DNA of 32,000 bases from Candidatus Babelota bacterium. Its GTDB lineage: Bacteria; Babelota; Babeliae; Babelales; Vermiphilaceae. The translations under genes were made by a program, and so were the position numbers. The DNA lies in contig JBDHVY010000001.1 in NCBI GenBank assembly GCA_039809905.1, positions 690,001 to 722,000 of the forward strand. Reading direction: 5' to 3'. Positions 9,395-31,179 of this stretch are shown piece by piece (position 1 is the stretch's first letter; each line of letters begins with the position of its first letter). Under the pieces are notes generated by a model. The model worked only from the letters and a program-made list of their open reading frames with translations. It had not been told where the DNA came from and did no database searches.

Positions 9395-10072
9395 TTATGC
9401 AAATTTTTGGCTGCGTTGGATAACACGACCAATTATTCTGAAATGATCTTTACCGCGAACAAGCGCTATAGGAGGTTGTTTGTGGTTAACAGATTCAAGA
9501 ACAATAAAGTCTTCAGTGTAAGTAACTTGCATAATTGCTTTAGTTGGCGTATCGTTACCAAATTCTACAGCAGCAATATCACCTGAGCGTGTCCATATTT
9601 CAGGAGAAACGATCAAATAATCACCTTTAATAAATGTTGGTGCCATTGCGTTGTTTTCAACACAAAGAGCAAACATTGCATTATCAGCTGAATTAAATAC
9701 TGGAACAAATATATCTTTGTAGCCAGTTGTGACTTGCATTAATTGGTTATTATAAGGAGATGGATTTGAAGGAACTTCTCCAACAACAGGAACAACTTTA
9801 ACTTGTAATTCAAGGTCTGATTGTTCTGGCATGCTGACATTTTTATCAATGTCATCAGTGCGTTGACGGTGTTCAGCAAAAAGATCAATTGGGCTAATTT
9901 CAAACGCTTGAGATAATTTTCTTAATGAATCTTCATTCCAGCGGCGTGTACCGTTTTTAATATGGGTAAGATAACTTTCAGACATCCCGGTTTTTTCAGC
10001 GAGGATCTTAGTTGTCCAACCTTTTTCTCTTAAAAGTTCTTTTACTCGTAATTGAGTAGATATTGAAATCAT
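9395..10072 (-). CDS. HTH-XRE / S24 (LexA, lambda CI-like) transcriptional repressor, predicted non-cleavable
   Basis: Start moved to MISISTQLRV (AGGAG RBS 8 nt upstream). HTH: LREKGWTTKILAEKTGMSESYLTHIKNG. The C-terminal domain aligns by eye with lambda CI: FALCVENNAMAPTF..GDYLIVSPE...GDIAAVEF....IGRVIQ. The Ser of the G-x-S-M motif is Ala here. Confidence 0.8.
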   Translation of the reverse strand: MISISTQLRVKELLREKGWTTKILAEKTGMSESYLTHIKNGTRRWNEDSLRKLSQAFEISPIDLFAEHRQRTDDIDKNVSMPEQSDLELQVKVVPVVGEVPSNPSPYNNQLMQVTTGYKDIFVPVFNSADNAMFALCVENNAMAPTFIKGDYLIVSPEIWTRSGDIAAVEFGNDTPTKAIMQVTYTEDFIVLESVNHKQPPIALVRGKDHFRIIGRVIQRSQKFA

Positions 10073-10164
10073 CTTTATATCTCCTTGCAATGTGGTTATA
10101 CTTATGGTAACAATTGAGACGACAGTATTATTTCTAATTGTACTCATCTTGGCGACTTTGTCAA

Positions 10165-10911
10165 ATGGAAATGAAAATAATGGTCATAGTGCGACAAACA
10201 GGCAATATTAAAAAAAATTCATTCGAGTATGATGCATGGCAAAACAATGCACTGGTAGTAGGTATTGATGAAGTTGGGCGAGGTTGCTTAGCTGGTCCGG
10301 TGGTTGCGGCGGCGGTTATTCTTCCTATTAATAAAGCTAATCGAATTCTCAAAGATTCAAAAGTGATGACATTATCAGAGCGCAATACTGCCTCCAGATG
10401 GATCAAAAAGCATTGTCATTATGGTATTGGCGTTGTTCATCATCGAATAATTGATCAACATAATATTTGGCGAGCAACCTTGATTGCTATGAAAAAGGCG
10501 TTACTGCATGTGCTTGAAGGCGTGCATACACGACCATCAGTAATCATTACTGATGCTATGCCATTAAATCTTTCTGATACACATTTTCATGACATTCCCG
10601 TTTATTATTTCCCTAAGGGAGAATCTAAATCTCATTCTATTGCGGCAGCTTCAATTATTGCTAAAGTTACCAGAGATGCCATGATGGAGTTATACGATGT
10701 GGCAATTCCAGGCTATGGATTAAAAGAAAATAAAGGGTATGGTACGCCTAAACACAAAAAAGTGGTCAAAGAACAGCATTATTCATTTATTCACCGTGTG
10801 CATTTTGTAGAGACGATTTTAAAAAATGATGAAAAAAAAGAAGAACAGTTGTCTTTATATATAGGTGAGGTTGGTAATGATAAAGGAGAGACCTTTTGCA
10901 GAAGTAATTGA
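10165..10911 (+). CDS. rnhB: Ribonuclease HII
   Basis: VGIDEVGRGCLAGPVVAAAV, KDSK.L....R, SIAAASIIAKV.RD. The start is uncertain (10138, 10165, 10171 or 10180). The 3' end overlaps the next gene. Confidence 0.85.
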   Translation: MEMKIMVIVRQTGNIKKNSFEYDAWQNNALVVGIDEVGRGCLAGPVVAAAVILPINKANRILKDSKVMTLSERNTASRWIKKHCHYGIGVVHHRIIDQHNIWRATLIAMKKALLHVLEGVHTRPSVIITDAMPLNLSDTHFHDIPVYYFPKGESKSHSIAAASIIAKVTRDAMMELYDVAIPGYGLKENKGYGTPKHKKVVKEQHYSFIHRVHFVETILKNDEKKEEQLSLYIGEVGNDKGETFCRSN

Positions 10912-11476
10912 AAGTTCATTAACAGGTTGGGTAGCCCAAAGTTGGTCATGGGATACATTTCCAGAATTTGGTTCTTTTGTTGCAATAGAAAGCAAAAAAA
11001 GAACTTTGTTTGGGATTGTGCATCAAGTACAAACTGGGTCCATGGATTCTGTGCGGTACCCATTTCCCTATCAAAAAACAGAAGAAGAGCTTTTAAAAGA
11101 GCAGCCACAGATATTTGAATTTCTTAAAACAACTTTTTCTTGTATTGCGATTGGATACCAAGAAAAGAAATCTATTTCATATCTTATTGCTCCAGAGCCA
11201 CCTAAAATTCATTCTTTCATTACTCACCCTGATGAATCAACAAGTAAGATTTTTTTTGCAAGCACCAGATATCTGCATCTTCTTTTTACCCATTCATCGA
11301 ATATTTTTAATGTTGATGAATTATTATTAGCTTTGCTCAAGCAACACAAGGATCTGAATATTTTAACTCTGGAAAAAATTAATGTATTTATGCAAACATA
11401 TTCATTGCTTATCGGTAATGATTATCGTCGTGTTAAATTATTTTTACAGCGTGTTGAGCATATGATGCATGGATGA
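10877..11476 (+). CDS. Hypothetical protein (N-terminus faintly resembles a small beta-barrel of the HAS-barrel type)
   Basis: ATG at 10877 preceded by GGTGAGG; the tracked start is a GTG. No motif I can name with confidence. Confidence 0.5.
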   Translation: MIKERPFAEVIESSLTGWVAQSWSWDTFPEFGSFVAIESKKRTLFGIVHQVQTGSMDSVRYPFPYQKTEEELLKEQPQIFEFLKTTFSCIAIGYQEKKSISYLIAPEPPKIHSFITHPDESTSKIFFASTRYLHLLFTHSSNIFNVDELLLALLKQHKDLNILTLEKINVFMQTYSLLIGNDYRRVKLFLQRVEHMMHG

Positions 11477-11479
11477 ATA

Positions 11480-12388
11480 ATGAAAAACTATTTTTTGGAG
11501 ATAGTTGTTATAATCTGTACGTTTTCGACGATAGTATGCCAAGAACCTTGGCATATTATTGGATATGAAAATCGTGGCGAATTTGAAAAAAGAATTGTTT
11601 TTTTAGAAGATAATACGCATAAAAAATTTGTGCTTAAATGCTATGATGATAATCAACAAGAAGAAGCGATTAGTGAAAGCATAGGATCATTTATTGGTGG
11701 TAGCATTGGTGTTCCGGTGCATACGACATCTATCATGATGTCCGGACCTCTTTTGGCTGAAATAAGTAATGGTACATCGTTGGCAACATTGCATGAATGC
11801 GTACCCGGGCGACAATTGGGAAAATGGTTTGAAGTGGTAGAGCATGATATTGTTTTAAAAGGTGGAGTATTATCCGAAAGACATTTAAATAGCTTAGCAA
11901 TCAATGATGATTTATGTGATATTGTTGCTCTTGATATATTTTTAAATAATAAGGATAGGCATCACGAAAACTGTTTTTTTGATGAAAGTACATCGCGCTA
12001 TTATGGAATAGACATGGGAGATATTTTTCTTGAGGTGCAAAAAATTCCCAACATTGAAAAAGATATATCTCCTCAACAAATCAAGATGTTTTTGATACTT
12101 ATTTTTGAAAAAAAAATAGTTGCTTTAAATACGTATTGTTTTTTACAAACTATCGATGCCAAGAATCTTTCATCTCAGCAGAAAAAAGCGTTACAGCGTC
12201 TTTCAGATACTCTGGAGCATCTTGTTGCTGCTTATTCTATAGATTCTTTGTTTAATTTGTGGATGTCTAAATCTCAGGAAATTGATTATGTTTACACCAA
12301 GTATAAACAATTCTACCTCAGGTTTGTTCTTGCCTTTAATATGTATTGGGTACAGCGGGTAATAAATCAAATACATATAATTTTTTAA
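11480..12388 (+). CDS. PI3K/PI4K-like (atypical) kinase-fold protein with N-terminal signal or TM segment
   Basis: N-terminus NYFLEIVVIICTFSTIVC. FVLKCY (ATP-binding Lys candidate), LHECVPG (hinge-like), NKDRHHENCFF (catalytic-loop DRHxxN), then YGIDMGD 10 residues later (DFG-equivalent). The ATG lies 4 nt after the upstream stop. Confidence 0.6.
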   Translation: MKNYFLEIVVIICTFSTIVCQEPWHIIGYENRGEFEKRIVFLEDNTHKKFVLKCYDDNQQEEAISESIGSFIGGSIGVPVHTTSIMMSGPLLAEISNGTSLATLHECVPGRQLGKWFEVVEHDIVLKGGVLSERHLNSLAINDDLCDIVALDIFLNNKDRHHENCFFDESTSRYYGIDMGDIFLEVQKIPNIEKDISPQQIKMFLILIFEKKIVALNTYCFLQTIDAKNLSSQQKKALQRLSDTLEHLVAAYSIDSLFNLWMSKSQEIDYVYTKYKQFYLRFVLAFNMYWVQRVINQIHIIF

Positions 12389-12498
12389 CTGTTTTTAATA
12401 CCAATTCCAAATTCAAGCTTGCAATTATTTCATTTTGAATTATTATAATAATTAATCTTTATTATAAATCATTATAATTTTATCCTTAGGGGGACAAT

Positions 12499-12783
12499 AT
12501 GAATATGTCGATAACAAAAATTTCTGCTTTAGCAATAATAATGACTATTTCTACTACTGCTTTATCAATGCAACCAAGAGAAAAGCGCCAGATGAGCGCC
12601 TATAGTGATATAGAAAACGGTACATGGGTTAAAGTACCCTACAGTGAGGGATACGTTTGGATGCAACAGAACTCTACTATAGTTGTGAGTGAGCGAATTA
12701 ATGAATTGGGTCAAACTGTTGTCACTACACATTATCATATTGCTTACGAAAATTCAGAGATTAGAAAAGGCCCAAAGCAGTAG
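12499..12783 (+). CDS. Small hypothetical secreted protein
   Basis: AGGGGGA RBS. Signal-like MSITKISALAIIMTISTTALS. Confidence 0.5.
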   Translation: MNMSITKISALAIIMTISTTALSMQPREKRQMSAYSDIENGTWVKVPYSEGYVWMQQNSTIVVSERINELGQTVVTTHYHIAYENSEIRKGPKQ

Positions 12784-12821
12784 AGATGTTTGGGCTATAA
12801 AAAGCTCTTTAGAATAAAAAC

Positions 12822-12874
12822 AAAAAAATTGCTGTTTTTTGCTGATTAAAAGCCAAAAACAGCAATTTTTTTGT
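12822..12874. terminator. Long AT-rich perfect inverted repeat (19-bp arms), probable terminator
   Basis: CAAAAAAATTGCTGTTTTT-N15-AAAAACAGCAATTTTTTTG followed by a T-run. Confidence 0.55.
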
Positions 12875-12918
12875 TTTTTGATAGAATAAATATCATAATC
12901 TACTAATTCAAGGGCGTT

Positions 12919-13809
12919 ATGTTTAGTTTCATCAAAAATAAATTACAAAAAATATTCAGTTCAGTTACTTCAAAATTAGGGTCATTTTTCACTAAAACAA
13001 CAATAGATGCAGCAGCACTTAAAGAGCTTGAGATTTTGTTAATTTCTAGCGATGTGGGTGTTACAACAACACAATCTATTATTGCTCAATTAAAAAAACA
13101 GGTTGATGCTGGTGTAATGGATGGTGCGCAATTAAAAGCATCAATGCATACAATTCTTTTAGATATTCTTACTAAAAATCAACTAATTGATTCTGCTGAG
13201 CAGAAAGTATTTTTATTTGTTGGCATTAATGGAAGTGGAAAAACAACCAGTATAGGTAAACTTGCTCACCTGTATACTCAACAAGGCAAAAAGGTATTAC
13301 TTGTTGCAGCTGATACTTTTAGGGCTGCTGCTCCAGAACAATTAAAAGAGTGGGCTCGTATCTCTCAGGCAGATATTCTATGCGGTAAAGAAGGGCAAGA
13401 TCCCGCATCGCTTGTGTTTCAAGGATGTGAAAAATTTAAAAAAGAACACTATGATATTTTGATTATTGATACTGCGGGGCGATTGCAGACAAAAATAAAC
13501 TTAATGCATGAGCTTGCAAAGATAAAGCGCGCTGTTGAAAAACAACTTTCTGATTGTTCGGTTGTTACGTTGCTAACTATTGATGCAATGCTTGGCCAAA
13601 ATTCATTTGAGCAAGCAAAATTATTTAAAGAAGCAACCGATGTCACGGGTATTGTTTTAACCAAAATGGATGGTACAGGAAAAGGTGGTATTGTGTTTGC
13701 TATTGCACAGGAATTGAATATTCCGGTAGCGTTTCTTACCTTTGGTGAACAAGCGGAACAGATCAAAATATTTAACGCAGAAGAATACGTAACAGATTTG
13801 TTAGGATGA
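12919..13809 (+). CDS. ftsY: Signal recognition particle receptor FtsY (short NG-only form)
   Basis: GINGSGKTTSIGKLA, DTAGRL, TKMDGTGKGG. 296 aa. Confidence 0.9.
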   Translation: MFSFIKNKLQKIFSSVTSKLGSFFTKTTIDAAALKELEILLISSDVGVTTTQSIIAQLKKQVDAGVMDGAQLKASMHTILLDILTKNQLIDSAEQKVFLFVGINGSGKTTSIGKLAHLYTQQGKKVLLVAADTFRAAAPEQLKEWARISQADILCGKEGQDPASLVFQGCEKFKKEHYDILIIDTAGRLQTKINLMHELAKIKRAVEKQLSDCSVVTLLTIDAMLGQNSFEQAKLFKEATDVTGIVLTKMDGTGKGGIVFAIAQELNIPVAFLTFGEQAEQIKIFNAEEYVTDLLG

Positions 13810-13853: not shown

Positions 13854-14708
13854 CTATTCTTTCAGCGAACATGTAATACCAACAGGATTATGATCACTTG
13901 CTACAGGTTTTTTACTATCTTTTGTAAGAGGTATGCTATCTACCGTTTTGTATTGAGATATACTGAATTTGCTTTGTGGTTTAACGAAGATAAAATCACA
14001 TTCTATTAATGCTTTTGTTGATCCTTTTTCATGCGTTACAGATGGACCTTCTACTTGTTGCGCTATTGTTTTAGCGTGAGTAAATCCGTCTTCAGTCAGT
14101 ATTTTTTTTAGATCTTTATCAAATGTTGTATTAAAATCTCCCAGTAAAATTACGGGCTTATCAGCACATTTTTGCTTAATATCATCGCTAATCATTTGTG
14201 CTTGTTCAGTTCGAACCTTTTCGTATTTATGATCAAGGTGAGTGTTATAAACAAAAAATTCTTTTCCGGTTGATTTTTCTTTGAGATGAATTTTGACTGC
14301 TGTTCTTGGTAGGTAACCAGAACCGTTTGGATTAATGCCAAATGTTTGAGAATCAATCAAATCAAATTTGTTTTTGTTATAAAAAATAGGACAACGCTCA
14401 TTTTGAGCACCAAGCGTAGTAAGGCGTAGCCAAATAGATAATCCACTTATATGATTGTTTCTTTTATCACCCACGTAATTATACTGAGGTAAGATGTCTT
14501 GGATTGATTTAAGTTGATCATTTTCATCAATAACTTCTTGTAGGCAATAAATATCGGCATTAAGGTCTTGTATAAGTTGAAGAACATTAGGTTTTCGCTT
14601 ATTCCAATCGTTTTTTTTACCATGAGTTATATTGTAGCTGTAGATTTTCATCTCGGCATTTATGAGAGGAAAATTAAGAAGCAAGGTCATTACAATATAT
14701 TTTTTCAT
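13854..14708 (-). CDS. Endonuclease/exonuclease/phosphatase (EEP) family protein with signal peptide
   Basis: MKKYIVMTLLLNFPLINA. Motifs: SYNI, CLQEV, NTHLDH, LLGDFN, SDHNPV. AGGAG RBS. Confidence 0.8.
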   Translation of the reverse strand: MKKYIVMTLLLNFPLINAEMKIYSYNITHGKKNDWNKRKPNVLQLIQDLNADIYCLQEVIDENDQLKSIQDILPQYNYVGDKRNNHISGLSIWLRLTTLGAQNERCPIFYNKNKFDLIDSQTFGINPNGSGYLPRTAVKIHLKEKSTGKEFFVYNTHLDHKYEKVRTEQAQMISDDIKQKCADKPVILLGDFNTTFDKDLKKILTEDGFTHAKTIAQQVEGPSVTHEKGSTKALIECDFIFVKPQSKFSISQYKTVDSIPLTKDSKKPVASDHNPVGITCSLKE

Positions 14709-14942
14709 AAAAAAACTCCTTATAGATAATTAGGTTCTATTTATTATGAGTATGTCTTTATTAGCAATAAACAAACAAGAGATTAGATTCTATTTGAAAA
14801 ACAATAAAAAGAAAGAGATAGTTTTTTTAAGCTTTGGCACTTTGTGGATCTTGCAAAACTGTGATAAACTCTATTGTAAAAATTAATGGAATTGTTTTTT
14901 AAAAAATGCATTTTTAACAATATATTCAAAGGTATTATTGAA

Positions 14943-15584
14943 ATGATAAATGCGAAGTATCATGTTGCTGGTTTTTTCTTTGTAATGAGTTTTTTTTCGG
15001 TAAATCTGATTAGTTTTGAACCTCAGGGTGCATCTTTTATAAAAGATCGTATGAATAATAAAATTGAAGAGTATATTAACATGCCTACCCGAGAAGTTGT
15101 ATCACGAGCAGGAACGGATAGAGATATTGCAAAGATGTTTAAAGAAGAAATATTAACTGATCCAATAGATGGACAAGAAGTTACTGAAGAGTATAAAAAT
15201 AAAAAATGCATGCAACAGATGAGAATTATTTTAAGAAAAGGCGAATGTTCGCCAGAAAAATCAGAATTGCTCAAATTCAAAGAAGATAAATCTGTTGCTT
15301 TTGATCAGAAAGAAAAAGTAATTGATGCCGAATGCACACGAGCTGATTCTGATAAAATAGTGATGGGAGCTGTTACTATTGTTAGCGCACTTGCTGCGCT
15401 TGCAGTAATCAGTGTAGCTGATCAAGAGCAAGGTAGAGGAGTGGGATATCTCGGTTGTTTTGCAGTAATTGCCGGTAGTGCTGCTTGCTATAAGAATTCA
15501 CAAGAAGCAGCGCAACTAAATATTCATAAAGCTCGAATACATACAATGAAAACTGAATGGGAAAATAGTTTTAACGAGCAATAG
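14943..15584 (+). CDS. Membrane protein, paralog A of the AGTDRD / KNKKCMQQ family
   Basis: Start moved to MINAKYHVAGFFFVMSFFSV. Shares long blocks with 17804-18439: RAGTDRDIA, LTDPIDG, KNKKCMQQMRIILRKGE. Two Gly/Ala-rich C-terminal hydrophobic segments. Confidence 0.65.
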   Translation: MINAKYHVAGFFFVMSFFSVNLISFEPQGASFIKDRMNNKIEEYINMPTREVVSRAGTDRDIAKMFKEEILTDPIDGQEVTEEYKNKKCMQQMRIILRKGECSPEKSELLKFKEDKSVAFDQKEKVIDAECTRADSDKIVMGAVTIVSALAALAVISVADQEQGRGVGYLGCFAVIAGSAACYKNSQEAAQLNIHKARIHTMKTEWENSFNEQ

Positions 15585-15633: not shown

Positions 15634-16557
15634 ATGAATATTCTTTACGATGTTACCTATTACATTAATGATATCCAGGCAAGACTCTATCCACTTTATG
15701 GTGATAATACACTTTGCCAGCAATATGCCTGGTGGATTTTGCAGGCAATCTGCGAAAAAACCAAAACAGAGCTTATCATACAAGAATCAATTGTGCTTAC
15801 TCCTGAACAACGACAAAAAATTGATCAATGGATGAAATATTTGATCGAAGATAAAATGCCATTGCAATATGTATTGGGCTTTGTTCCTTTTGCAGATCTT
15901 GAAATTTTGGTGGAACCACCTACGCTTATTCCTCGTCCAGAAACAGAAGAGTGGTCTTTATATATTATTGAGCATTTGCTATTGCTTGATAATAAAAAAT
16001 TAAAAATATTAGATCTTGCTACTGGTTCTGGATGTGTTGCGCTTACCTTTGCACATTATTTACCGCAAGCAACGATAGTTGCTACTGATATTGCCGATTC
16101 TGCGCTTGAATTAACGGAAAAAAATAGTGAACACAATAAAATCAGAAATGTTACGACTATAAAATCCGATCTTTTTGAATCAATTCCACACGGTATGAAA
16201 TTCGATATAATTGTTTCCAATCCGCCGTATATTACCGAGGCTGAATTTACTCAACTTGATGAAACAGTAACGTGTTGGGAAGATCACGCAGCATTAGTTG
16301 CCCCTGATAATGGTCTTGCTATCATTAAAAAAATCATTGCACAAGCTCCTCTGTTTATACAAACTAATAATGAAATGAAGCAAAAAAATATTCCTCAAAT
16401 TGTTATAGAAATTGGATATACACAAGGAGATGCGGTGAGAGACATAATGCTTGCTGCTCATTATAATGATGTTCTTGTGCATAAAGATTTAGAAGGTAAA
16501 GATCGGTTTGTTACTGGAAGGGTCAATTATGTGGCCGATACCAACGCTGGATCATAA
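15634..16557 (+). CDS. prmC: Release-factor glutamine N5-methyltransferase PrmC/HemK
   Basis: LIPRPETE, LDLATGSGC, IVSNPPYI. Confidence 0.85.
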   Translation: MNILYDVTYYINDIQARLYPLYGDNTLCQQYAWWILQAICEKTKTELIIQESIVLTPEQRQKIDQWMKYLIEDKMPLQYVLGFVPFADLEILVEPPTLIPRPETEEWSLYIIEHLLLLDNKKLKILDLATGSGCVALTFAHYLPQATIVATDIADSALELTEKNSEHNKIRNVTTIKSDLFESIPHGMKFDIIVSNPPYITEAEFTQLDETVTCWEDHAALVAPDNGLAIIKKIIAQAPLFIQTNNEMKQKNIPQIVIEIGYTQGDAVRDIMLAAHYNDVLVHKDLEGKDRFVTGRVNYVADTNAGS

Positions 16558-17227
16558 TATAGTTACGATCTCATTTTCTTCAGATAATCTTGTGTGTAGT
16601 TGGATACAAAAAACGAAAACAGGAACAGCTCCATTGCAATTATGCGCATACCAACGATACCAACTTTCTCATTTCGAACTTGCCAATCTTATTCTTTTTA
16701 ATCCAACAATGATCAAAAAATATATTACTTTTTTTTTGCAAAAGCATAATCTTTACGATGCTTTTATTGTGTGCAGTTTTGATGGTCTAGCTATTGCAGA
16801 AGCATTTATTGCTATGCCAACAGCAACACCTCATCGTGCTGATTTTGGCATTCCAGTATCCAGTAATACAGCGTGGGAATATCGTTATATGTACCCAAAT
16901 GATCAGAACCAGCATGTTTTTTATGTTTATACAATGCCAAGATTTTTGGTGTTACAATATCAATTGCTTGCTATTGCTATGCAATGTAATGTTATTACAA
17001 TGACAACCAAAACGATGGCGCTTTTTTATGCATATAAGACTATTTTTGGTGCGGCATTCAGAAAAAGTCAGTTGGCTGTAGATATGATGCGACATAATAA
17101 TGCTATTGAAGATCTTATTTCTCTTGATGGATTAAGACGCATGATATCTATACCTCTTGAGATTAATATAAAAGATGAAAAACCATTTATTGCTCCAGCT
17201 GTTGGGTTATTTTGTGCTGAAAGGTAA
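16529..17227 (+). CDS. Hypothetical protein, possible truncated PilM-like (actin-like fold, N-terminal half)
   Basis: Start at MWPIP (GGAAGGG RBS); overlaps the prmC end by 29 nt. The pattern of hydrophobic blocks resembles the first half of PilM. Only about 232 aa, and I cannot see nucleotide-binding motifs. Confidence 0.35.
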   Translation: MWPIPTLDHNIVTISFSSDNLVCSWIQKTKTGTAPLQLCAYQRYQLSHFELANLILFNPTMIKKYITFFLQKHNLYDAFIVCSFDGLAIAEAFIAMPTATPHRADFGIPVSSNTAWEYRYMYPNDQNQHVFYVYTMPRFLVLQYQLLAIAMQCNVITMTTKTMALFYAYKTIFGAAFRKSQLAVDMMRHNNAIEDLISLDGLRRMISIPLEINIKDEKPFIAPAVGLFCAER

Positions 17228-17239
17228 GGTAAGTGCGGA

Positions 17240-17773
17240 ATGAAAAAAATTAATTTTATCACATCTTTATCGCCTCAAAAACAGTACGAAATTAATTGCT
17301 GGTTTTGGGTAACATTTTTTTTGAGTGTATCTGCAATAAGCATGGGAGCATATTTTTTTGTACCAAAGATAATGTGTTATGTTTCATTGCACAAACAATG
17401 CGTTGCATTGCGTGAAAGAACAAAAAATTATGCAGAAATTACAAAAAATAAAGATATCTTTAGCAAAGAATATGATGCATTACGTATGCGTGAAACTAAA
17501 ATAAATAGGTATGTTGATAAAGCAAAAAATCCTCATGATTATATTGCAACAATTGTTCATGTATGTGGTGATAACATTCATTTAGAATCAGTGCAATTTA
17601 TTAAAAAAGAATGTGAGATTATCATAGTGTGTCAGAATGTCCAGCAGGCACATCTATGCGTTAAATGCATCAACGAATCGAATAAGTTTTCTCATTGTAA
17701 AATAACTTCATTGGTGCATAATATGGAAAAAAAATTATATAAAGCTACAATTAAAGGACATATAATTTATTAA
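17240..17773 (+). CDS. Hypothetical bitopic protein, possible PilN-like
   Basis: N-terminus MKKINFITSL (compare the PilN INLLP motif), a single TM segment (WFWVTFFLSVSAISMGAYFFV), then a coiled-coil-like segment. Lies immediately after the PilM-like gene. Confidence 0.3.
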   Translation: MKKINFITSLSPQKQYEINCWFWVTFFLSVSAISMGAYFFVPKIMCYVSLHKQCVALRERTKNYAEITKNKDIFSKEYDALRMRETKINRYVDKAKNPHDYIATIVHVCGDNIHLESVQFIKKECEIIIVCQNVQQAHLCVKCINESNKFSHCKITSLVHNMEKKLYKATIKGHIIY

Positions 17774-17803
17774 AAATATTACTACAGTAAAGGTCTCTTT
17801 AAA

Positions 17804-18439
17804 ATGATACATATAAGACAAATCGCTATAAGTTTATTGATGACAATCAGTTGTTTTTCACTAGAAGTAATAGGTTCTGGTGTTTGGTATGGACATCCTA
17901 CAACAGATCGTATGAATGATAGAATAGAGCACTATCTTGCTATATCTACAAATGAAGTTGCACAACGAGCAGGAACGGATCGAGATGTTGCAATGGCATT
18001 TAAAAGAGAAATGTTGACTGACCCGGTAGATGGTGAAGAAATAAGCGAAGAACGCAAAAATAAAAAATGTATGCAACAGATAAGAATTATTTTAAAAAAA
18101 GGTGAGGATTCTGGAACAAAACTAGAATTAGTTGAATTCAAAGAAAATACGTCTATTGCGCTTGATAATAAAGAAAAAGCTCTTATTTTAACACGCGATG
18201 GATTAGCATCTCGTAAATCAATGCTCCTAAATGTGGTATTAGTTGGTGGGCTTTTAGCGATGGCAGGAGCGCGCGCGAGCAAGGATAATAAAACAGCAGG
18301 TGCGCTTACAGGTGGTTTGGGAGCTACTATGGTAGTAGGTGGTGGGATAGGTTTGTGCTTTGTAGGAGCAGAAAGTCCATTTAATACCCATATAAACCAA
18401 ATACAAACTATGAAAAATGATTGGGAAATCAGTTTTTAA
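17804..18439 (+). CDS. Membrane protein, paralog B of the AGTDRD / KNKKCMQQ family
   Basis: RAGTDRDVA, LTDPVDG, KNKKCMQQIRIILKKGE. Gly-rich C-terminal hydrophobic segments. C-terminal IQTMKNDWEISF compares with IHTMKTEWENSF in paralog A. Confidence 0.65.
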   Translation: MIHIRQIAISLLMTISCFSLEVIGSGVWYGHPTTDRMNDRIEHYLAISTNEVAQRAGTDRDVAMAFKREMLTDPVDGEEISEERKNKKCMQQIRIILKKGEDSGTKLELVEFKENTSIALDNKEKALILTRDGLASRKSMLLNVVLVGGLLAMAGARASKDNKTAGALTGGLGATMVVGGGIGLCFVGAESPFNTHINQIQTMKNDWEISF

Positions 18440-18486
18440 TACTAAATAAAAGATAAAAAATACCTGTTTTTATTAAAGGAGAGTGA

Positions 18487-18858
18487 ATGAAACTGAATAT
18501 GATGTTGGCAGCTTTGTGCTTTATTGGTGCATATGAATCTGCTATGGCAATGGATAAAAGAGATGCATATTTAAAATTTAAAGTTAATAAAGAATTACAA
18601 ATTGTAGGGCATAAAGCAAAACAGATGGAATTATTTGCAAAGCCGGAAGAGTTTACGGGAAAAATTATTACAGAGGTTATACCGTTGAGTCCTGAAGATA
18701 AAGATGCTTTGAAGAATGGTTTTCAAAATGCTTTTGTGCTTAAAAAGAAACAAAAAGTTGAATACACATTGGAAGATATGCGATATGTTGCGGCAATTCA
18801 ACGTAAAAAAGATAGTTTTTCTGTGAAAGTAAAAGAAGCATCTACGGTAAAAAGATAG
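18487..18858 (+). CDS. Small hypothetical secreted protein
   Basis: AAAGGAGAG RBS. Signal-like MMLAALCFIGAYESAMA. Confidence 0.55.
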   Translation: MKLNMMLAALCFIGAYESAMAMDKRDAYLKFKVNKELQIVGHKAKQMELFAKPEEFTGKIITEVIPLSPEDKDALKNGFQNAFVLKKKQKVEYTLEDMRYVAAIQRKKDSFSVKVKEASTVKR

Positions 18859-22365: not shown

Positions 22366-22881
22366 TTATACTTGAGCTTCAAGTTCTTTTATTTTAGCAT
22401 CTATTCTTTGTAATAGATTGTTAAATACGATTGCCATATCCCAGCATTCTTTATTTTGAAAATCATTCATTACCAGTTCAGCAGTTTGTTCATCGTTGTA
22501 AAGCTTAAGGAAAACAGATCTTAATAATTTGTCTTGCGGGCATTCGTTGCCATTGTAATCTGGATAATTAAAGCCTGAATTGCACAATTGTTCAAGTGTT
22601 TCTATTTTTTGATTCTCTAATATATTCATAAAATAATCGATCTCAAAAGAATATGGAGCAATTGCTTTAAGAGCTAAAATTTCGTTCCATAGAATGTCTA
22701 GATTGGCAAGATACGTTTTATTTGGATCGCGTTTGCTTTCTGCTATTGTTTCTGTCAATTCATTTTGTAGTTCGATTTTTATGTTTTGTAAGTTTGCGAG
22801 CATCTCTTGTTTTGTAGGTTTTTCTGTTGTTGATGTAATTGCTGCTGATGCTAAAAGAGTAGTTAGTAATAAGTTTTTCAT
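22366..22881 (-). CDS. Hypothetical secreted helical protein
   Basis: Signal MKNLLLTTLLASAAITS. AGGAAA RBS. Ends in the coiled-coil-like KIKELEAQV. Confidence 0.6.
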   Translation of the reverse strand: MKNLLLTTLLASAAITSTTEKPTKQEMLANLQNIKIELQNELTETIAESKRDPNKTYLANLDILWNEILALKAIAPYSFEIDYFMNILENQKIETLEQLCNSGFNYPDYNGNECPQDKLLRSVFLKLYNDEQTAELVMNDFQNKECWDMAIVFNNLLQRIDAKIKELEAQV

Positions 22882-22893
22882 AATGGTTTCCTT

Positions 22894-23301
22894 TTACGAT
22901 TGTTTTTTCTGTTCTTTGATTTGGGAACATAATTCACGATAGTTTCTTTCTAGCGATGCATAATGAGAATTGCTATATAATTGAGATTTTAAATGATCCA
23001 TCTGATGAAATAGTAAATATTTTTTAATAAAATAGAGGAATGGTGAGCCTGTAGTCGGCTTCATATAATATATTTTTTTGATTTGCTCTGTGTGATTTAT
23101 CGCATTATTGATTACTCGACATTGTTTATTGCCTGTTTGGTTATTACAAAAATCTCTCAATTTAGAATTTTGAGATATATCAAGTAATAAACTCTTCATA
23201 GCCTCTACTGTATCTTGATTAAAATCTTGAGCTGGATTTGTAGAAAAACTGATAAATGGTGCAAAAATGGCGATAAAAAGCGCTAATACATTATTTTTCA
23301 T
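22894..23301 (-). CDS. Hypothetical secreted protein
   Basis: Signal MKNNVLALFIAIFAPFISFS. AGGGA RBS. Lies 12 nt upstream of the next gene. Confidence 0.6.
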   Translation of the reverse strand: MKNNVLALFIAIFAPFISFSTNPAQDFNQDTVEAMKSLLLDISQNSKLRDFCNNQTGNKQCRVINNAINHTEQIKKIYYMKPTTGSPFLYFIKKYLLFHQMDHLKSQLYSNSHYASLERNYRELCSQIKEQKKQS

Positions 23302-23341
23302 GACTTACAATCCCTGATTTAGCATTAATGTTATAGTAGTA

Positions 23342-23369
23342 AGTATAGCAATGTATTGCAAATTGTCAA
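23342..23369 (-). promoter_or_regulatory. Near-consensus sigma70 promoter with an embedded small palindrome
   Basis: Minus strand reads TTGACA-16 nt-TATACT. The spacer contains GCAAT-gt-ATTGC (23348-23359). Confidence 0.55.
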
Positions 23370-23391
23370 TATTGAAAAGGTTTAATAGAAT

Positions 23392-23937
23392 CTAATCGTT
23401 ATTTTTTCGCTGATAGGTGCCAATGAGAGTTGTTTGTTCCAAGATATGGCCATGCATAGCTTTCAAGATGTCTTCTTTTGTTGCTCCTGCAGGTGCATCA
23501 AGCATAGTGTCTAATGCGTAAAGAGTAAAATGATAATGATGAGTACCACGTGGTGGGCACGGGCCACCCCATTTTTGAGTGCCAAAATCAGTTGATCCAT
23601 AGGTGAATGGTGCTTCTGCTCGTGATGAACCTTGATTTTTATCAATATGATCGACGGTTGAAGGAATATTAAATACAACCCAATGAACCCATACTTTTGC
23701 TGGCGTGTCCGAAGTAGCTTTAGCGAAGTTGGACGCATCCGGATCATCAACGATTAATGCAAAGCTTTGTGTATTTTCCGGTGCATCTGACCACATGAGT
23801 GCCGGAGAAATGTTTGCACCATCGCAACTATATTCTGTTGGAATTGATTCATTATGAGAAAAGGCTGGGCTTATAAGTTTCATAACTGCGCTCGCTGGTA
23901 AACAATAAAAGAGAGCTATTAATAATATTTTTTTCAT
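23392..23937 (-). CDS. PEBP/YbhB-family (Raf kinase inhibitor-like) protein with signal peptide
   Basis: SP.L.W, DDPDA, WVHWVVFNIP, GGPCPP.G.HHYHFTLYALD. Signal MKKILLIALFYCLPASA. A 4-nt ATGA overlap with the upstream gene. Confidence 0.85.
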   Translation of the reverse strand: MKKILLIALFYCLPASAVMKLISPAFSHNESIPTEYSCDGANISPALMWSDAPENTQSFALIVDDPDASNFAKATSDTPAKVWVHWVVFNIPSTVDHIDKNQGSSRAEAPFTYGSTDFGTQKWGGPCPPRGTHHYHFTLYALDTMLDAPAGATKEDILKAMHGHILEQTTLIGTYQRKNND

Positions 23938-24401
23938 TCTTGAACTACCGTTTCATTTTTTAATTCATCTCTTTTTTGCGTTAATTTCTGTCCCAAAAGT
24001 AAGCAATATTGCTTTTGCGCCATTGATGAGAAAAGATTTTTCCCATAATCTTTCATAGTTACTTTTGGGAAGAAGGTTGAAAAATGGAACGTTGTTTTAA
24101 GGCTATTGAATGACATATTTCGATTCGCTATAGCTTCAAAGTGAGTATTGACGGTAGTTTGTAATTGGGTAAGTACTTCGCTACGAGCTAGTGCTCGTTC
24201 AAGTACAGGCTGTACTGATGCATAAAGCTTTGGTGATGCTATTTGAGCTCTTTTGATTTGAATTTTTGCTACATTCAATGCGCGTTTAATCGCAGATAAT
24301 TCATTGTTTATATGCTCTATCTGGCTTTCAGATGTGGACATGCCCCAGGCTGATGCCGTGGTTAGTATTATCAATAGAGAAAAGTAACTTTTTTTTAACA
24401 T
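23934..24401 (-). CDS. Hypothetical secreted helical protein
   Basis: Start moved to MLKKSYFSLLIILTTASAWG (AGGA RBS; the tracked start is a TTG). Confidence 0.6.
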   Translation of the reverse strand: MLKKSYFSLLIILTTASAWGMSTSESQIEHINNELSAIKRALNVAKIQIKRAQIASPKLYASVQPVLERALARSEVLTQLQTTVNTHFEAIANRNMSFNSLKTTFHFSTFFPKVTMKDYGKNLFSSMAQKQYCLLLGQKLTQKRDELKNETVVQE

Positions 24402-24483
24402 AATATATCCTATCAATAAAATTGTCTTTCTACTGACAGGATATATTATTTATATTCTAATAGTCAATTAATGTTGAATAATA

Positions 24484-25044
24484 TTAAACAAGCGCAGCTT
24501 GATTTTCCCGCTGTATGTTTTCAAGTTCAGCGGCGAGTTCGCTTTTTTTAACCTCTAGTTTCTCAATAAGCAGTCGAGACCCACGTGTAATAGCATATGC
24601 AACATAAAATATGTTAAATAACTGTTCAGTTTGTTCATCAAATGAAGCATTTGAGAGTTCAGTTTTTATTTTTTGCTCAAGAGGGAATGCGCTTGGATCG
24701 ATAATAATATCATCAAATGAGATGTTTTCATCAACGATTAGACGTGCTTGTTCAGTAGTGACTTGTTCGATGGTAGAACTAAATTCATCACTGAGCAGAA
24801 TGGTAGCAAGTACAACCCAACATCTGTTCTTTGTAGATTCATAGGTATCTTGCAATAATTCTTGAAAATGTTTTTCTGTGCGGTTTTTTAAAATAAGACC
24901 TACCTTTACTTCCAGCATGATGGCACTTATTTGCTGAGAGATATGCTCAAGAGAGCTTTGGATTACGATTGTGCGATCAGAAGGAATAAGTGTAGAGAAT
25001 GGTAATACCATAAAGGCTACAGAAAGACACAAATTTTTTAACAT
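24484..25044 (-). CDS. Hypothetical secreted helical protein
   Basis: Signal MLKNLCLSVAFMVLPFS. AGGA RBS. LEHISQQISAI compares with IEHINNELSAI in the 23934 gene. Confidence 0.6.
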   Translation of the reverse strand: MLKNLCLSVAFMVLPFSTLIPSDRTIVIQSSLEHISQQISAIMLEVKVGLILKNRTEKHFQELLQDTYESTKNRCWVVLATILLSDEFSSTIEQVTTEQARLIVDENISFDDIIIDPSAFPLEQKIKTELSNASFDEQTEQLFNIFYVAYAITRGSRLLIEKLEVKKSELAAELENIQRENQAALV

Positions 25045-28500: not shown

Positions 28501-30303
28501 TCAATCAAGCTCTTGTAATTCAGCTGGTTCTACTAAATGTTCTTTTTCCATTTCTTTATACTCACTTTCATCATCATTTTCATCAACATCTGGAAAATCA
28601 AAAAATTCTTCATCTGAAGCTTCACCTTTAGGGCTTAAAGAGATAGCATTCTGTATTGCTTCAGGCAACTCTCTATATCTTTCTTGTTCTCTTTCTTTAG
28701 TCTGTTCTAATGCTTTTTTTTCTTCTAACTGTTGTTTTACTTTTGAAAATAAAGATTTACCCCAATCTATCCATGATTGTGTTTGAGCACTTTCTGGTTC
28801 ATAAATTTTTTGCCACTCTTGTTCTTCTTTATTAATTTGTTGTTGGCGAGCTTCTGCTTTTTGCAGAGCTTCTGCTTCTTTGTTTATTTTTTCTTGTTCA
28901 ATTGATATGCCTGTTTGAGAATTGTACTCTCTTTTATCGTTATTTTCATCTATCGCTACAACATTGCCTGAGGTATTGAAAAATGCTGCTTGTGTTGTAT
29001 CAGATAACGTGAGAATAGTTTTGCCAGATGACGTATCAATAAGTTGATAATAAGATTTATTTGTTGTTCTTTGTAATGAAAGCAAGCGAGATTCTTCTGT
29101 ATTAAATGTAAAAGTAATGATCTCGTTCAAGTCTTTTTTTATGTCACCAGAAGATGTATCAACTACGAGGGTTCGCATTGAAGAAGAACCCAACAATCCC
29201 CCTGACCATTCTTGTGTGGTACTTTTTTCTTCATGATTAATGATTAAAAATTTTCTTTTTGGACTGAATTGATATGAGATAACGTTTTTAATTTTTTCCA
29301 ACTCTGTTGCTGGCTTACCAGTAATAATTACTTTCATCTTGCTATAAGCATGATCATACATTGCTGTTATTAAAGGTTTGCCTTCTTGTGTTTGCTTTTC
29401 TTCAATTTGAATTGTTGGTTGTGTGCTGATAATATTTATTATTTTGCGATATAGTGAAAGACGAACATTTCTTTTTATAGATACTGTTTTTGTTGTTCCG
29501 CTATCGTAGGTTACCGAAAGTTCATCTTCTTTTGTGAAATGAATGTCTTGAATGTTTTCAAATACGGCTATCATCGTTGCAGATGCAATATCAAAAAGAT
29601 AATATCTTAAAATTTCGCGCGTCCCTTTTTGTTCTCGTAATGGAAGTCCTTCGGAGGTTGTACCGCTTTCTTTTTCGCTTGGTTTTTTAAAACCAAATAT
29701 TTCTTGAAGATATTCTACAGCGCTGCTCAATTGAGTGCTTGCCAACAATAATGTTTTTTCTTGTGGACTAAATTGTTGAGTAATAAGAGATCCTTTAAAA
29801 GATATTACTACATTTCTTGAATGTATATCATAGAGATCCGTAATAGGTGAAGTACCTATGCGTTCCGGGCCAAAAACCATACCTTTTAATACACTGCCAA
29901 AAGTATATCGTTGCAATACGATATACTTTTTATGTGGACTAAATTGATAACCAGTTGTTTTATCAAATACTTTTTGAGGAACAAATTTATCTTCCGGTTG
30001 GTTAAGGCCGCTTATATCATTTTTAAGTATAAGTTTTTTTTCACTTGCATTATAAAAAGCTATAGGAGGTCTTTCTGCTATTTCTGTTAATTTTGGTGAT
30101 AAAAAAGTACTGATCTTCGGTTTTGTTACAGAAGATGCCACGGGTTCTTTTAGTTGTGCTGTTGGATAAAAAAATTTTTTTATAGAAGCAATGTAAGGAG
30201 CAATTGTTTGCTTAAGTATACCTTGTTTTTGACTTTGCTCAGATGGTACAAGATAAGACATTATTCCTAATGAAAAACAGAATAATATAATTAACTTTTT
30301 CAT
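28501..30303 (-). CDS. Large secreted protein with PD40/WD40-like beta-propeller-type repeats and an acidic coiled-coil tail
   Basis: Signal MKKLIILFCFSLGIMSYL. Recurring blades: YQFSPHKKYIVLQ, QQFSPQEKTLLLAS, YQFSPKRKFLIINH. C-terminal part rich in E, K and Q, with DEEFFDFPDVDENDDESEY. AAGGA RBS. Confidence 0.55.
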   Translation of the reverse strand: MKKLIILFCFSLGIMSYLVPSEQSQKQGILKQTIAPYIASIKKFFYPTAQLKEPVASSVTKPKISTFLSPKLTEIAERPPIAFYNASEKKLILKNDISGLNQPEDKFVPQKVFDKTTGYQFSPHKKYIVLQRYTFGSVLKGMVFGPERIGTSPITDLYDIHSRNVVISFKGSLITQQFSPQEKTLLLASTQLSSAVEYLQEIFGFKKPSEKESGTTSEGLPLREQKGTREILRYYLFDIASATMIAVFENIQDIHFTKEDELSVTYDSGTTKTVSIKRNVRLSLYRKIINIISTQPTIQIEEKQTQEGKPLITAMYDHAYSKMKVIITGKPATELEKIKNVISYQFSPKRKFLIINHEEKSTTQEWSGGLLGSSSMRTLVVDTSSGDIKKDLNEIITFTFNTEESRLLSLQRTTNKSYYQLIDTSSGKTILTLSDTTQAAFFNTSGNVVAIDENNDKREYNSQTGISIEQEKINKEAEALQKAEARQQQINKEEQEWQKIYEPESAQTQSWIDWGKSLFSKVKQQLEEKKALEQTKEREQERYRELPEAIQNAISLSPKGEASDEEFFDFPDVDENDDESEYKEMEKEHLVEPAELQELD

Positions 30304-30342
30304 AAATACAATCCTTATAGCTGCAATTTTTCAGATTTGTAT

Positions 30343-31179
30343 TTATTGTAAAAGATGCAACGAGTTGTTTTCAACTTTTTGCGATTTATTAATAAGTTGA
30401 GGAATATATTTTATGGTAATGGGCTTGCATGGTTTGCTATAAGGTTTTTTTGTGATCTTTGGATAATTAAGACGTCGTGCTTCTTTTGTAATAAGCAAGG
30501 GCACTTTTTGCAGGCTGGCATTATATATTTCGGTTATAGTTATGTGTTGTTTTTGATTATGAGGAACATACGGGATAATTGATAAATTGATCGGAGTTGC
30601 TTTTTGTGGAATTGGTGAACACATGAAAGATTCTTCATCATCAGAATAAGATTGATAATCATCAGAATAAGAAGATTCATCAATTGAAGATTCATCAGAT
30701 AAATCTTCTGAGTTTTCTTCATTTTTTTGTAGAGTTTTTATGAAAGATTGCTTATTAATATATCTTATTTTATAACGTTCTTCAGGTTCTCCGTTTTTTG
30801 TTTTTGTATCTTGTACCTTTATTTCTGGATCTATGGCTTTTGGTATAATGGTATTTTTGCTGGTTTCGATTTTATTTTTTTTAATGAGAATAATATATGT
30901 CCATATTTTTTTGAAAAAAAAACAGATCATAGAATGCAAAGATTGTGAGCGCATTGAAAATATATCGTTATAATTTTGAGTGCTTGCAATTATTCTGCTC
31001 ATCTCAATTTTTCTTATGTGGTTAAATAATTGAGAGCATTGATGATACTTTTGTTTTGTATATGTTTGAACATGAAATAAGAATGAATGGGAGGTATTGT
31101 TTTCCTCGCCTGTGCAATAGCTAAAGAATAATAAAAAGAGTAGTGATATGTTGTTTCGATAACAATAATCTTTTTTCAT
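30343..31179 (-). CDS. Hypothetical protein with N-terminal hydrophobic segment and acidic Ser-rich region
   Basis: AGGAG RBS. ISLLFLLFFSYC. ENSEDLSDESSIDESSYSDDYQSYSDDEESF. Confidence 0.5.
   Translation of the reverse strand: MKKDYCYRNNISLLFLLFFSYCTGEENNTSHSFLFHVQTYTKQKYHQCSQLFNHIRKIEMSRIIASTQNYNDIFSMRSQSLHSMICFFFKKIWTYIILIKKNKIETSKNTIIPKAIDPEIKVQDTKTKNGEPEERYKIRYINKQSFIKTLQKNEENSEDLSDESSIDESSYSDDYQSYSDDEESFMCSPIPQKATPINLSIIPYVPHNQKQHITITEIYNASLQKVPLLITKEARRLNYPKITKKPYSKPCKPITIKYIPQLINKSQKVENNSLHLLQ

Follow-up and report, generated by a model that had tools for sequence, protein, structure and literature searches.

Several bacteria possess effectors of the PI3/PI4-kinase type, such as OpiA of Francisella, LegA5 and MavQ of Legionella and Risk1 of Rickettsia, and, to our knowledge, secretion systems of type III, IV or VI are the usual route by which bacterial kinases acting on a host are delivered. 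As far as we know, the periplasm is generally taken to be devoid of ATP, so that kinases located behind a Sec signal peptide are unexpected in bacteria. The present work deals with a protein that seems to have this architecture: a 302-residue kinase-like protein encoded in a 32,000-nucleotide stretch of the genome of a Candidatus Babelota bacterium (contig JBDHVY010000001.1, positions 690,001 to 722,000; hereafter the window), in a conserved neighbourhood bordered by rnhB and ftsY.

The nearest solved fold is that of CtkA (JHP0940; PDB 3AKK and 3AKL), a secreted, pro-inflammatory Ser/Thr kinase of Helicobacter pylori which acts on host cells; its gene lies on the tfs3 integrative and conjugative element, and it needs a type IV secretion system together with a C-terminal KRRR signal (PMC5536186). 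The curated family that best matches the wider group of relatives is HipA_2 (PF20613), for which a single preprint could be found in the literature, and which KINtaro merges with HipA_C as PKLF000019 (bioRxiv 10.64898/2026.09.18.752743). A search of the literature on kinases, signal peptides or secreted proteins of Dependentiae and Babeliales returned nothing on the kinase family described here. The explanation that we favour, with a probability of roughly 0.6, is that the window kinase is a Sec-exported, active member of the PI3/4K-HipA branch, carried as fast-evolving cargo and acting in the periplasm or in the host. What appears to be new is an uncurated family of this branch which bears Sec signals and has radiated in Babeliales.

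Catalytic core and predicted fold

The initial annotation of this DNA, a reading of the sequence, had described a 302-residue open reading frame (ORF) with a hydrophobic N-terminus and four motifs of a PI3/PI4-kinase catalytic core. The ORF was confirmed, with an ATG start and a hydrophobic stretch following a Lys residue, and FVLKCY, LHECVPG, NKDRHHEN and IDMG lie where they had been placed (Table 1). Their spacing had to be corrected: instead of the 10 residues given between the catalytic Asn and the metal-binding motif, I177 lies 13 and D178 14 residues after N164, a distance which, if anything, seems nearer to the PI3K pattern and not further from it.

A word-indexed search recovered 22 close homologues, all of them metagenomic and 48-65% identical to the window kinase. 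In the alignment of 20 of these, K53, E62, E66, H105, V108-P-G110, D152, D159-R-H, E163-N164, D178, G180 and D181 are invariant. Moreover, a profile search run exhaustively over 1.84 billion cluster representatives (clustered at 50% identity) gave 331 relatives with E<=1e-3, of which 158 reach E<=1e-10; most are 300-350 residues long. Conservation was followed in a set of 100 relatives with approximately 17-51% identity to the window kinase: K53, N164 and D178 are each kept in 99% of them, as is the acidic residue of helix alpha-C that follows K53 (E66; E or D in 99 of the 100), while G110 is kept in 100% and D159 in 87%. The catalytic motifs are thus not a chance pattern, since they are invariant among the 20 homologues and their central residues (K53, N164 and D178) are almost always kept in the wider set. 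No relative was found when the GTDB species-representative contigs were scanned with the close-family motifs, so the close kinase clade is absent from these representatives.

An AlphaFold2 (AF2) model built on the 20-homologue alignment, with a predicted local distance difference test (pLDDT) of 81 and a predicted template modelling score (pTM) of 0.82, shows, in order, three N-lobe strands of which the last carries K53 (residues 49-55), helix alpha-C (57-75), two more strands and the hinge. Helix alpha-E (143-154) leads on to the catalytic loop, after which come two short strands and the DFG-like Asp; the helical C-lobe is modelled with confidence. The beta-3 Lys, alpha-C Glu, loop Asp and Asn, and DFG Asp that characterise the superfamily of protein-kinase-like (PKL) proteins (Pfam clan CL0016) are all present and in order, and the modelled protein is a canonical PKL bilobal fold with its catalytic core intact. 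The structure prediction and Foldseek comparison proposed in the initial annotation accordingly gave a kinase fold, whose top matches are all kinases, with CtkA as the nearest. The kinase fold is also known to support other chemistries, as in SelO and SidJ, and the window protein could in principle lack catalysis, as a pseudokinase scaffold, or act as an AMPylase or glutamylase. In addition to these precedents, such an explanation draws on the replacement of the catalytic Asp in about 13% of the wider family and on the paralogue P0299, with DQS in place of DRS in the catalytic motif; it is very improbable, as the window kinase and all 19 close homologues retain every canonical residue for phosphotransfer.

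Export signal

The N-terminus of the kinase reads MKNYFLEIVVIICTFSTIVC/QEP, with K2 in the n-region followed by a 12-residue hydrophobic h-region, and the I-V-C preceding Q21 fits the -3/-1 rule of the classical Sec/signal peptidase I pathway. The signal peptide announced in the initial annotation is also recognisable, on a heuristic reading (N-terminal K/R plus hydrophobic stretch), in 18 of 20 close homologues and in 77 of 100 wider relatives. Canonical cleavage sites were found in homologues (SYA/QQ, SQA/QQ, VYA/QQ and ANA/DV), and the positional orthologue of locus L008, 34% identical, carries a ...GFVEA/KR site. As far as can be judged from these sequences, the export signal is a family-wide trait. 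With its positive charge placed ahead of the hydrophobic stretch, the signal predicts that the kinase domain faces out. The N-terminus is presumably cleaved rather than retained as an anchor.

Exported proteins (as predicted) to which no function has been assigned account for a large share of the window. At 22366-25044 and 28501-31179, on the reverse strand in both cases, lie more ORFs specific to the lineage whose N-termini resemble signal peptides and for which Pfam gave no match; one of them encodes a 600-residue protein. On the same strand, a tandem array at 2906-6967 comprises six or seven paralogues of approximately 145-184 residues, each with a signal peptide of the type MN(I/T)SKKL...QAY...; with pairwise identities of 26-57%, it gives the impression of a secreted family that has been amplified locally.

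Relationship to described kinase families

Two of the families that the initial annotation had put forward for comparison, PI3_PI4_kinase (PF00454) and the HipA group, both match below threshold. PF00454 scores 22.8 bits (gathering threshold 27.1; E 9.7e-5) over residues 148-195, aligned with profile positions 137-184, which comprise the catalytic loop and the DFG region, while PF20613 scores 17.5 bits (threshold 27; E 2.6e-3) over residues 47-186, from beta-3 through the catalytic loop. The Pfam scan gave no match to PF07804 in the window kinase, and faint, sub-threshold matches to Fam20C and TIGR03843 were also seen. When the 100 relatives were scanned, HipA_2 was detected in 51 (at E<=1e-3; best E 3.4e-10), PI3_PI4_kinase in 32 and the actin-fragmin kinase (AFK) family PF09192 in 2. 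Two relatives retrieved by the family profile, P0056 (7e-30) and P0069 (4e-19), lie above the gathering thresholds of both PI3_PI4_kinase (32.6 and 37.6 bits, respectively) and HipA_2, so that transitive homology to the PI3/4K-HipA branch is secure. The window kinase thereby belongs securely to this branch of the PKL clan; the same cannot be said of its membership in the canonical PI3K/PI4K family. P0056 and P0069 have tandem duplicated kinase domains without an N-terminal signal peptide, those of P0056 being flanked by a repeated Cys motif, G(K/I)PCGKG(F/W)ISKEKEC, and the high-GC-type amino-acid composition of P0069 indicates that the superfamily extends beyond Babeliales.

The best library match of the window kinase is phrog_3162, with an E-value of 2.7e-10 over almost the entire domain (residues 46-274), and the PADLOC candidate PDC-M03A matches at 7e-7. 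Both are uncharacterised kinase-like families of phages or defence candidates, whereas the window kinase is encoded on a bacterial chromosome and not in a phage or defence island; a tblastn search of 50,697 phage genomes gave no match, in spite of the similarities in PHROG and BFVD. At the structural level, Foldseek placed CtkA first in the PDB (E 2e-6, probability 1.00, template modelling (TM) score 0.51-0.53 over about 317 columns), and after it HipA, HipT, RioK1, GAK/AAK1 and CotH, with PI3K-delta at rank 25 (TM 0.24) and mTOR at TM 0.25. In BFVD the neighbours included polyvalent phage proteins and phage proteins whose annotation is PI3K/PI4K catalytic domain (TM 0.4-0.5), as well as an Orpheovirus AFK-domain protein (TM 0.42).

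CtkA and the window kinase are alike in being single-domain bacterial kinases of about 300 residues which align over their full length. They share, however, 12-13% identity, and CtkA was not recovered by the family profiles among PDB sequences at E<=10 or E<=1; moreover, the window kinase ends in ...RVINQIHIIF, has its signal at the N-terminus and is encoded in a chromosomal housekeeping region. The AFK of Physarum (PDB 1CJA; PF09192) gave a weak match (E 0.2) aligning FVxK and ALDxxxxNxDR, but it is a cytosolic eukaryotic protein kinase and the matches are not significant. The ROP kinases of Toxoplasma, Fam20C, Fam20B and POMK form expanded, fast-evolving families that act outside the cytosol of the producer, and they resemble the window kinase in having a kinase domain behind a signal peptide; this likeness is one of analogy only, since they are eukaryotic and belong to other PKL branches, and homology is not claimed.

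The proteins of PF00454 (eukaryotic PI3K, PI4K and PIKK, as well as OpiA and LegA5) share with the window kinase the DRHxxN loop, an ID-x-G motif 14 residues on, and the beta-3 Lys with its acidic helix. Unlike it, they are cytosolic or delivered by type IV or VI systems, and the window kinase, predicted to be exported by Sec, has neither their accessory domains nor their basic activation loop and matches solved PI3Ks poorly. The possibility that it is a true PI3/PI4-kinase effector, which would be exported to phosphorylate phosphatidylinositol on host membranes and so remodel the niche, nevertheless deserves consideration. The loop and its PI3K-like spacing, the fact that the PF00454 match falls on exactly the catalytic loop and DFG region, the 32 relatives that match this family, the phage PI3K/PI4K-annotated proteins among the structural neighbours and the location of the gene in an effector-like variable slot (see below) all speak in its favour. 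So do four giant relatives of 1600-2200 residues (P0136, P0146, P0159 and P0157), in which the kinase-like domain is fused to LRAT-type and alpha/beta-hydrolase (DUF676/PGAP1-like) domains, a composition that suggests lipid-directed, toxin-like proteins. On the other hand, the PF00454 match is sub-threshold and HipA_2 is found in more relatives with better E-values. PI3K-delta and mTOR rank lower than CtkA, GAK and RioK1, all of them protein kinases, and the window kinase lacks any accessory domain of the helical, C2 or membrane-targeting type. Among the homologues compared, the stretch that follows D178 varies in sequence and is acidic or neutral in net charge, with no basic activation or specificity loop of the phosphoinositide type, and the mature proteins are acidic (isoelectric point 4.9-6.3). 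To judge by these features, none points specifically to a phosphoinositide substrate, and a phosphatidylinositol kinase effector is unlikely. From the initial assignment as a PI3K/PI4K-like kinase, the kinase fold and the branch could be retained, on the basis of the AF2 model, Foldseek, P0056 and P0069; membership of the PI3K/PI4K family proper could not.

The relation with HipA_2 is similarly limited, as the window kinase carries a predicted export signal at its N-terminus together with a DRHxxN loop of the PI3/4K type, and lies outside any toxin-antitoxin context, with rnhB, ORF199 (a 199-residue ORF) and ftsY as neighbours. A HipA-type toxin kinase, or a membrane-anchored regulatory kinase which faces the cytoplasm and acts on a bacterial target, would account for the weak HipA_2 match, for HipA and HipT among the Foldseek matches and for the Xre-type helix-turn-helix (HTH) gene located two genes upstream. 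It is highly improbable. The hhalign comparison of the family profile with E. coli HipA gave a probability of 0.7% over 27 columns, and membership among HipA toxins was rejected on this ground; in addition, the N-terminal domains of HipA are missing (302 residues, as against 440 in HipA), and the positive n-region before the hydrophobic stretch predicts an outward-facing C-terminal domain. The HTH-S24 (LexA-like) gene is itself 93-97% conserved and also occurs in loci devoid of the kinase, so it belongs to the backbone and is not a dedicated antitoxin, and it was likewise rejected as a HipB-like partner. In summary of the comparisons, the kinase represents a distinct, uncurated family placed between HipA_2 and the PI3/PI4-kinases. 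It would function as a kinase of this branch, and is not demonstrably a member of either curated family.

Variable slot and evolutionary rate

The order LexA-like (reverse strand), rnhB, ORF199, kinase, ftsY, endonuclease/exonuclease/phosphatase (EEP) gene (reverse strand) and prmC recurs in the syntenic loci L003-L006, L008 and L017. Within this order the products differ widely in conservation (Table 1). The nonsynonymous substitution rate (dN) of the kinase is 0.23-0.38, that is, 2-8-fold higher than the 0.03-0.18 of its neighbours, and the ratio to the synonymous rate (dN/dS) is approximately 0.2-0.3, a sign of purifying selection which is indicative only, since dS is saturated. The interval between ORF199 and ftsY contains the kinase in the window and in the loci listed above; it is empty, with a gap of 72 nucleotides, in the P0266 contig, while in L014 it holds two mutually paralogous signal-peptide proteins unrelated to the kinase, and in L015 an M48 peptidase and two ankyrin-repeat proteins. 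From this comparison the kinase is seen as accessory and not core. The variability of the slot, together with the raised dN, marks it as fast-evolving, probably exported, effector-like cargo situated at a hot spot, the backbone being rigid elsewhere.

The identity of the LexA-like protein, where that of FtsY is about 80%, is unusually strong for a regulator in a reduced genome.

ORF199, which had been regarded as an ORFan forming an accessory-looking pair with the kinase, proved to be neither. As many as 1487 homologues were recovered for it at E<=1e-3, and NCBI names several of these as Candidatus Babeliales proteins; its high identity in the syntenic loci (Table 1) contrasts with that of the kinase, for which alone the accessory character holds. 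Its AF2 model (pLDDT 86) gave as the top 50 Foldseek matches the N-terminal HAS-barrel and helical part of HerA ATPases, in agreement with a faint PF09378 match, and it has neither the ATPase domain nor a signal peptide, being a stand-alone HAS-barrel plus helical domain. By these comparisons ORF199 is a core, slowly evolving protein of Babeliales. It is kept with or without the kinase (without it in L014, L015 and the P0266 contig), and even without rnhB (L014). The idea that the two proteins are functionally connected was rejected, because ORF199 persists irrespective of the kinase.

In L014 (3143-4606), rnhB is absent, so that ORF199 directly follows the LexA-like gene; in L003 (4667-5760), rnhB and ORF199 are both fragmented, either by frameshifts due to assembly errors or as pseudogenes.

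Gene packing and flanking features

The window has a G+C content of about 34%. As for its lineage, PolA relatives with 74-83% identity include a metagenome-assembled genome labelled Candidatus Babeliales bacterium and uncultured genomes of 1.2-1.5 Mb, which agrees with Babeliales (Dependentiae). The start of rnhB is placed by the gene callers at ATG 10180 (243 residues), and the longest ORF begins at TTG 10138. The tight packing reported initially was confirmed: the rnhB stop (10909-10911) lies inside ORF199, giving a 35-nucleotide overlap, the ATG of ORF199 is preceded by the Shine-Dalgarno sequence AGGTGAGG, and 3 nucleotides separate the ORF199 stop from the kinase ATG. A consensus terminator scan found no terminator-like site inside the rnhB-ORF199-kinase block. 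Owing to the overlap and the 3-nucleotide spacing, the lack of such a site between the genes and the conserved gene order, the co-transcription of the three genes that had been proposed is plausible. The AT-rich spacer downstream of the kinase probably represents the 3' limit of the block.

Table 1. Features of the kinase locus, with identities between window proteins and their counterparts in the syntenic loci
Feature	Position	Strand	Basis or remark	Identity (%)
LexA-like regulator (Xre-type HTH, S24 peptidase), divergent	9395..10147	-	Pfam	93-97
rnhB (RNase HII)	10180..10911	+	PF01351, E 2.8e-32; NCBIfam RNase HII; gene calls in L001/L002	65-75
ORF199 (199 residues)	10877 (ATG)..11476 (TGA)	+	sequence read; homologues, AF2, Foldseek	84-86
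Atypical kinase, predicted exported (302 residues, ATG start)	11480..12388	+	profile matches, alignment, AF2, Foldseek	51-53; 34 in L008
Predicted Sec-type signal peptide, residues 1-20	11480..11539	+	heuristic reading only	
Beta-3 strand FVLKCY, residues 50-55; ATP-binding K53 at 11636-11638	11627..11644	+	K53 conserved in relatives; strand in model	
Hinge LHECVPG, residues 104-110	11789..11809	+	family consensus ATLHxxVPG; G110 in 100/100 and H105 in 94/100 relatives	
Catalytic loop NKDRHHEN, residues 157-164; D159 at 11954-11956, N164 at 11969-11971	11948..11971	+	alignments; PF00454	
Metal-binding IDMG (DFG equivalent), residues 177-180; D178 at 12011-12013	12008..12019	+	D178 in 99/100 relatives	
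AT-rich spacer, about 111 nucleotides; promoter-like TTGCAA-16-TATTAT (12419-12446) and strong Shine-Dalgarno	12389..12498	+	consensus matches only	
94-residue signal-peptide ORF, second cargo gene of the slot	12499..12783	+	ORF list; tblastn against syntenic loci	
Inverted repeat of 28 nucleotides, 96% complementary, loop of 7, flanked by A and T runs	12816..12878		sequence	
ftsY, right border of the variable slot	12919..13809	+	PF00448, E 1.9e-70	78-80
Signal-peptide EEP protein	13854..14708	-	syntenic	36-47
PrmC				73-81
Kinase paralogue pairs	L011 7983-10138; L013 6897-9020; L018 4124-6269		near class-B acid phosphatase and radA	
Kinase paralogue in a cluster of seven GT4 genes	L012 7472-8452			

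The 94-residue ORF that follows the spacer gave no tblastn match in any syntenic locus and is, for this reason, the real ORFan-like gene of the region. The inverted repeat located just 5' of ftsY, which was missed by the consensus terminator scan, looks like a bidirectional intrinsic terminator, notwithstanding its AT-rich stem.

Beyond ftsY, the EEP gene is fast-evolving; its relatives among PDB sequences are EEP proteins of Bacteroides and a mannosyl-6-phosphatase (4c1r), followed by nocturnin, and by its sequence it may encode an exported phosphatase or nuclease next to the exported kinase. Further downstream, prmC and a series of small ORFs for membrane or secreted proteins (16508-18858) are flanked by two paralogous ORFs with 41% identity (14886-15584 and 17804-18439, forward strand); in a syntenic locus, one of the small ORFs has a weak PilN match.

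Paralogues and candidate substrates

The kinase family comprises at least three positional orthologue groups in the genomes compared. Signal-peptide paralogues with 24-28% identity form a conserved tandem pair after cysS, an epimerase gene and a GT4 glycosyltransferase gene in L011, L013 and L018, and another paralogue lies inside the GT4 cluster of L012 (Table 1). This proximity to GT4 genes suggests a link of these paralogues with envelope glycans.

It has therefore to be asked whether the window kinase could itself act on the envelope, phosphorylating in the periplasm, with host ATP, a glycan or glycolipid of the bacterium, for instance a sugar of the capsule or of a lipopolysaccharide (LPS)-like molecule, as an analogue of Fam20B and POMK, the glycan kinases of the eukaryotic secretory pathway. 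The paralogues after the epimerase and GT4 genes and within the GT4 cluster, the faint Fam20C match and the presence of CotH among the fold neighbours are consistent with such a role. It is, however, a doubtful explanation for the window gene, which has no glycan-synthesis neighbours and occupies a slot that elsewhere holds effector-like cargo, and adjacency is weak evidence in tiny, gene-dense genomes. Furthermore, WaaP and KdkA, the known kinases of the LPS core, reside in the cytoplasm and have no signal peptides.

The three clues to the substrate, namely the GT4 neighbours, the fusions with lipid-acting domains and the CtkA fold, do not converge. The candidates are a host protein or lipid, on the one hand, and an envelope glycan, on the other; the enzyme is not a canonical PI3K/PI4K.

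Proposed mode of action

According to the explanation favoured here, that of an exported and active kinase, the gene would be transcribed together with rnhB and ORF199, as gene geometry and synteny suggest. The precursor would then be exported by Sec and cut by signal peptidase I near residue 20, following the sequence rules given above. The resulting acidic mature domain of approximately 282 residues would bind Mg-ATP through K53, E66, N164 and D178, and D159 would serve as the catalytic base in phosphate transfer, a chemistry deduced from the fold for residues which are conserved. The site of action would be the periplasm, the cell surface or, if the protein is secreted further, the protist host; in all these cases the kinase probably works outside the bacterial cytoplasm. 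As for the energy source, Dependentiae are parasites of protists. The phylum is also known for its ATP/ADP translocases (PMC10579323). As Babeliales import host ATP, ATP must reach the periplasm, which would make an extracytoplasmic kinase feasible.

Several points weigh against this explanation. The structural match with CtkA is moderate, with a TM score of 0.53 and a root-mean-square deviation of about 6 Å, and sequence and profile searches of the PDB gave nothing significant (only AFK, E 0.2, and OspG, E 0.43). To judge from its sequence, the N-terminus might instead serve as an anchor that is not cleaved. Moreover, about half of the lineage-specific ORFs of the window have similar signal-like N-termini, so that the signal does not single out the kinase. 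Finally, co-transcription with the upstream genes is deduced from geometry and synteny.

A broader proposal, put forward as distinctly tentative, is that Babeliales may have a radiated family of Sec-exported, catalytically intact kinases of the PI3/4K-HipA type working on host ATP outside the cytoplasm, some of them linked to glycan clusters and located in the periplasm or at the surface, and others, like the window kinase, fast-evolving and host-directed cargo of variable slots; this would be the first extracytoplasmic phosphorylation made possible by energy parasitism.

Significance

The locus illustrates how, in genomes of very small size, a slot for variable cargo can be enclosed by conserved backbone genes, here ORF199 and ftsY. 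The uncurated family to which the kinase belongs shows the combination of signal peptide and kinase domain consistently, in a phylum of ATP-importing, obligate parasites of protists. If its members are active outside the cytoplasm, they would provide an entry point to host manipulation or envelope building in Dependentiae, as well as a new, experimentally tractable branch between HipA-like and PI3/PI4-kinases. Furthermore, should the radiation proposed above prove true, bacteria would possess in this family an equivalent of the kinases with signal peptides that are found in eukaryotic parasites and secretory pathways.

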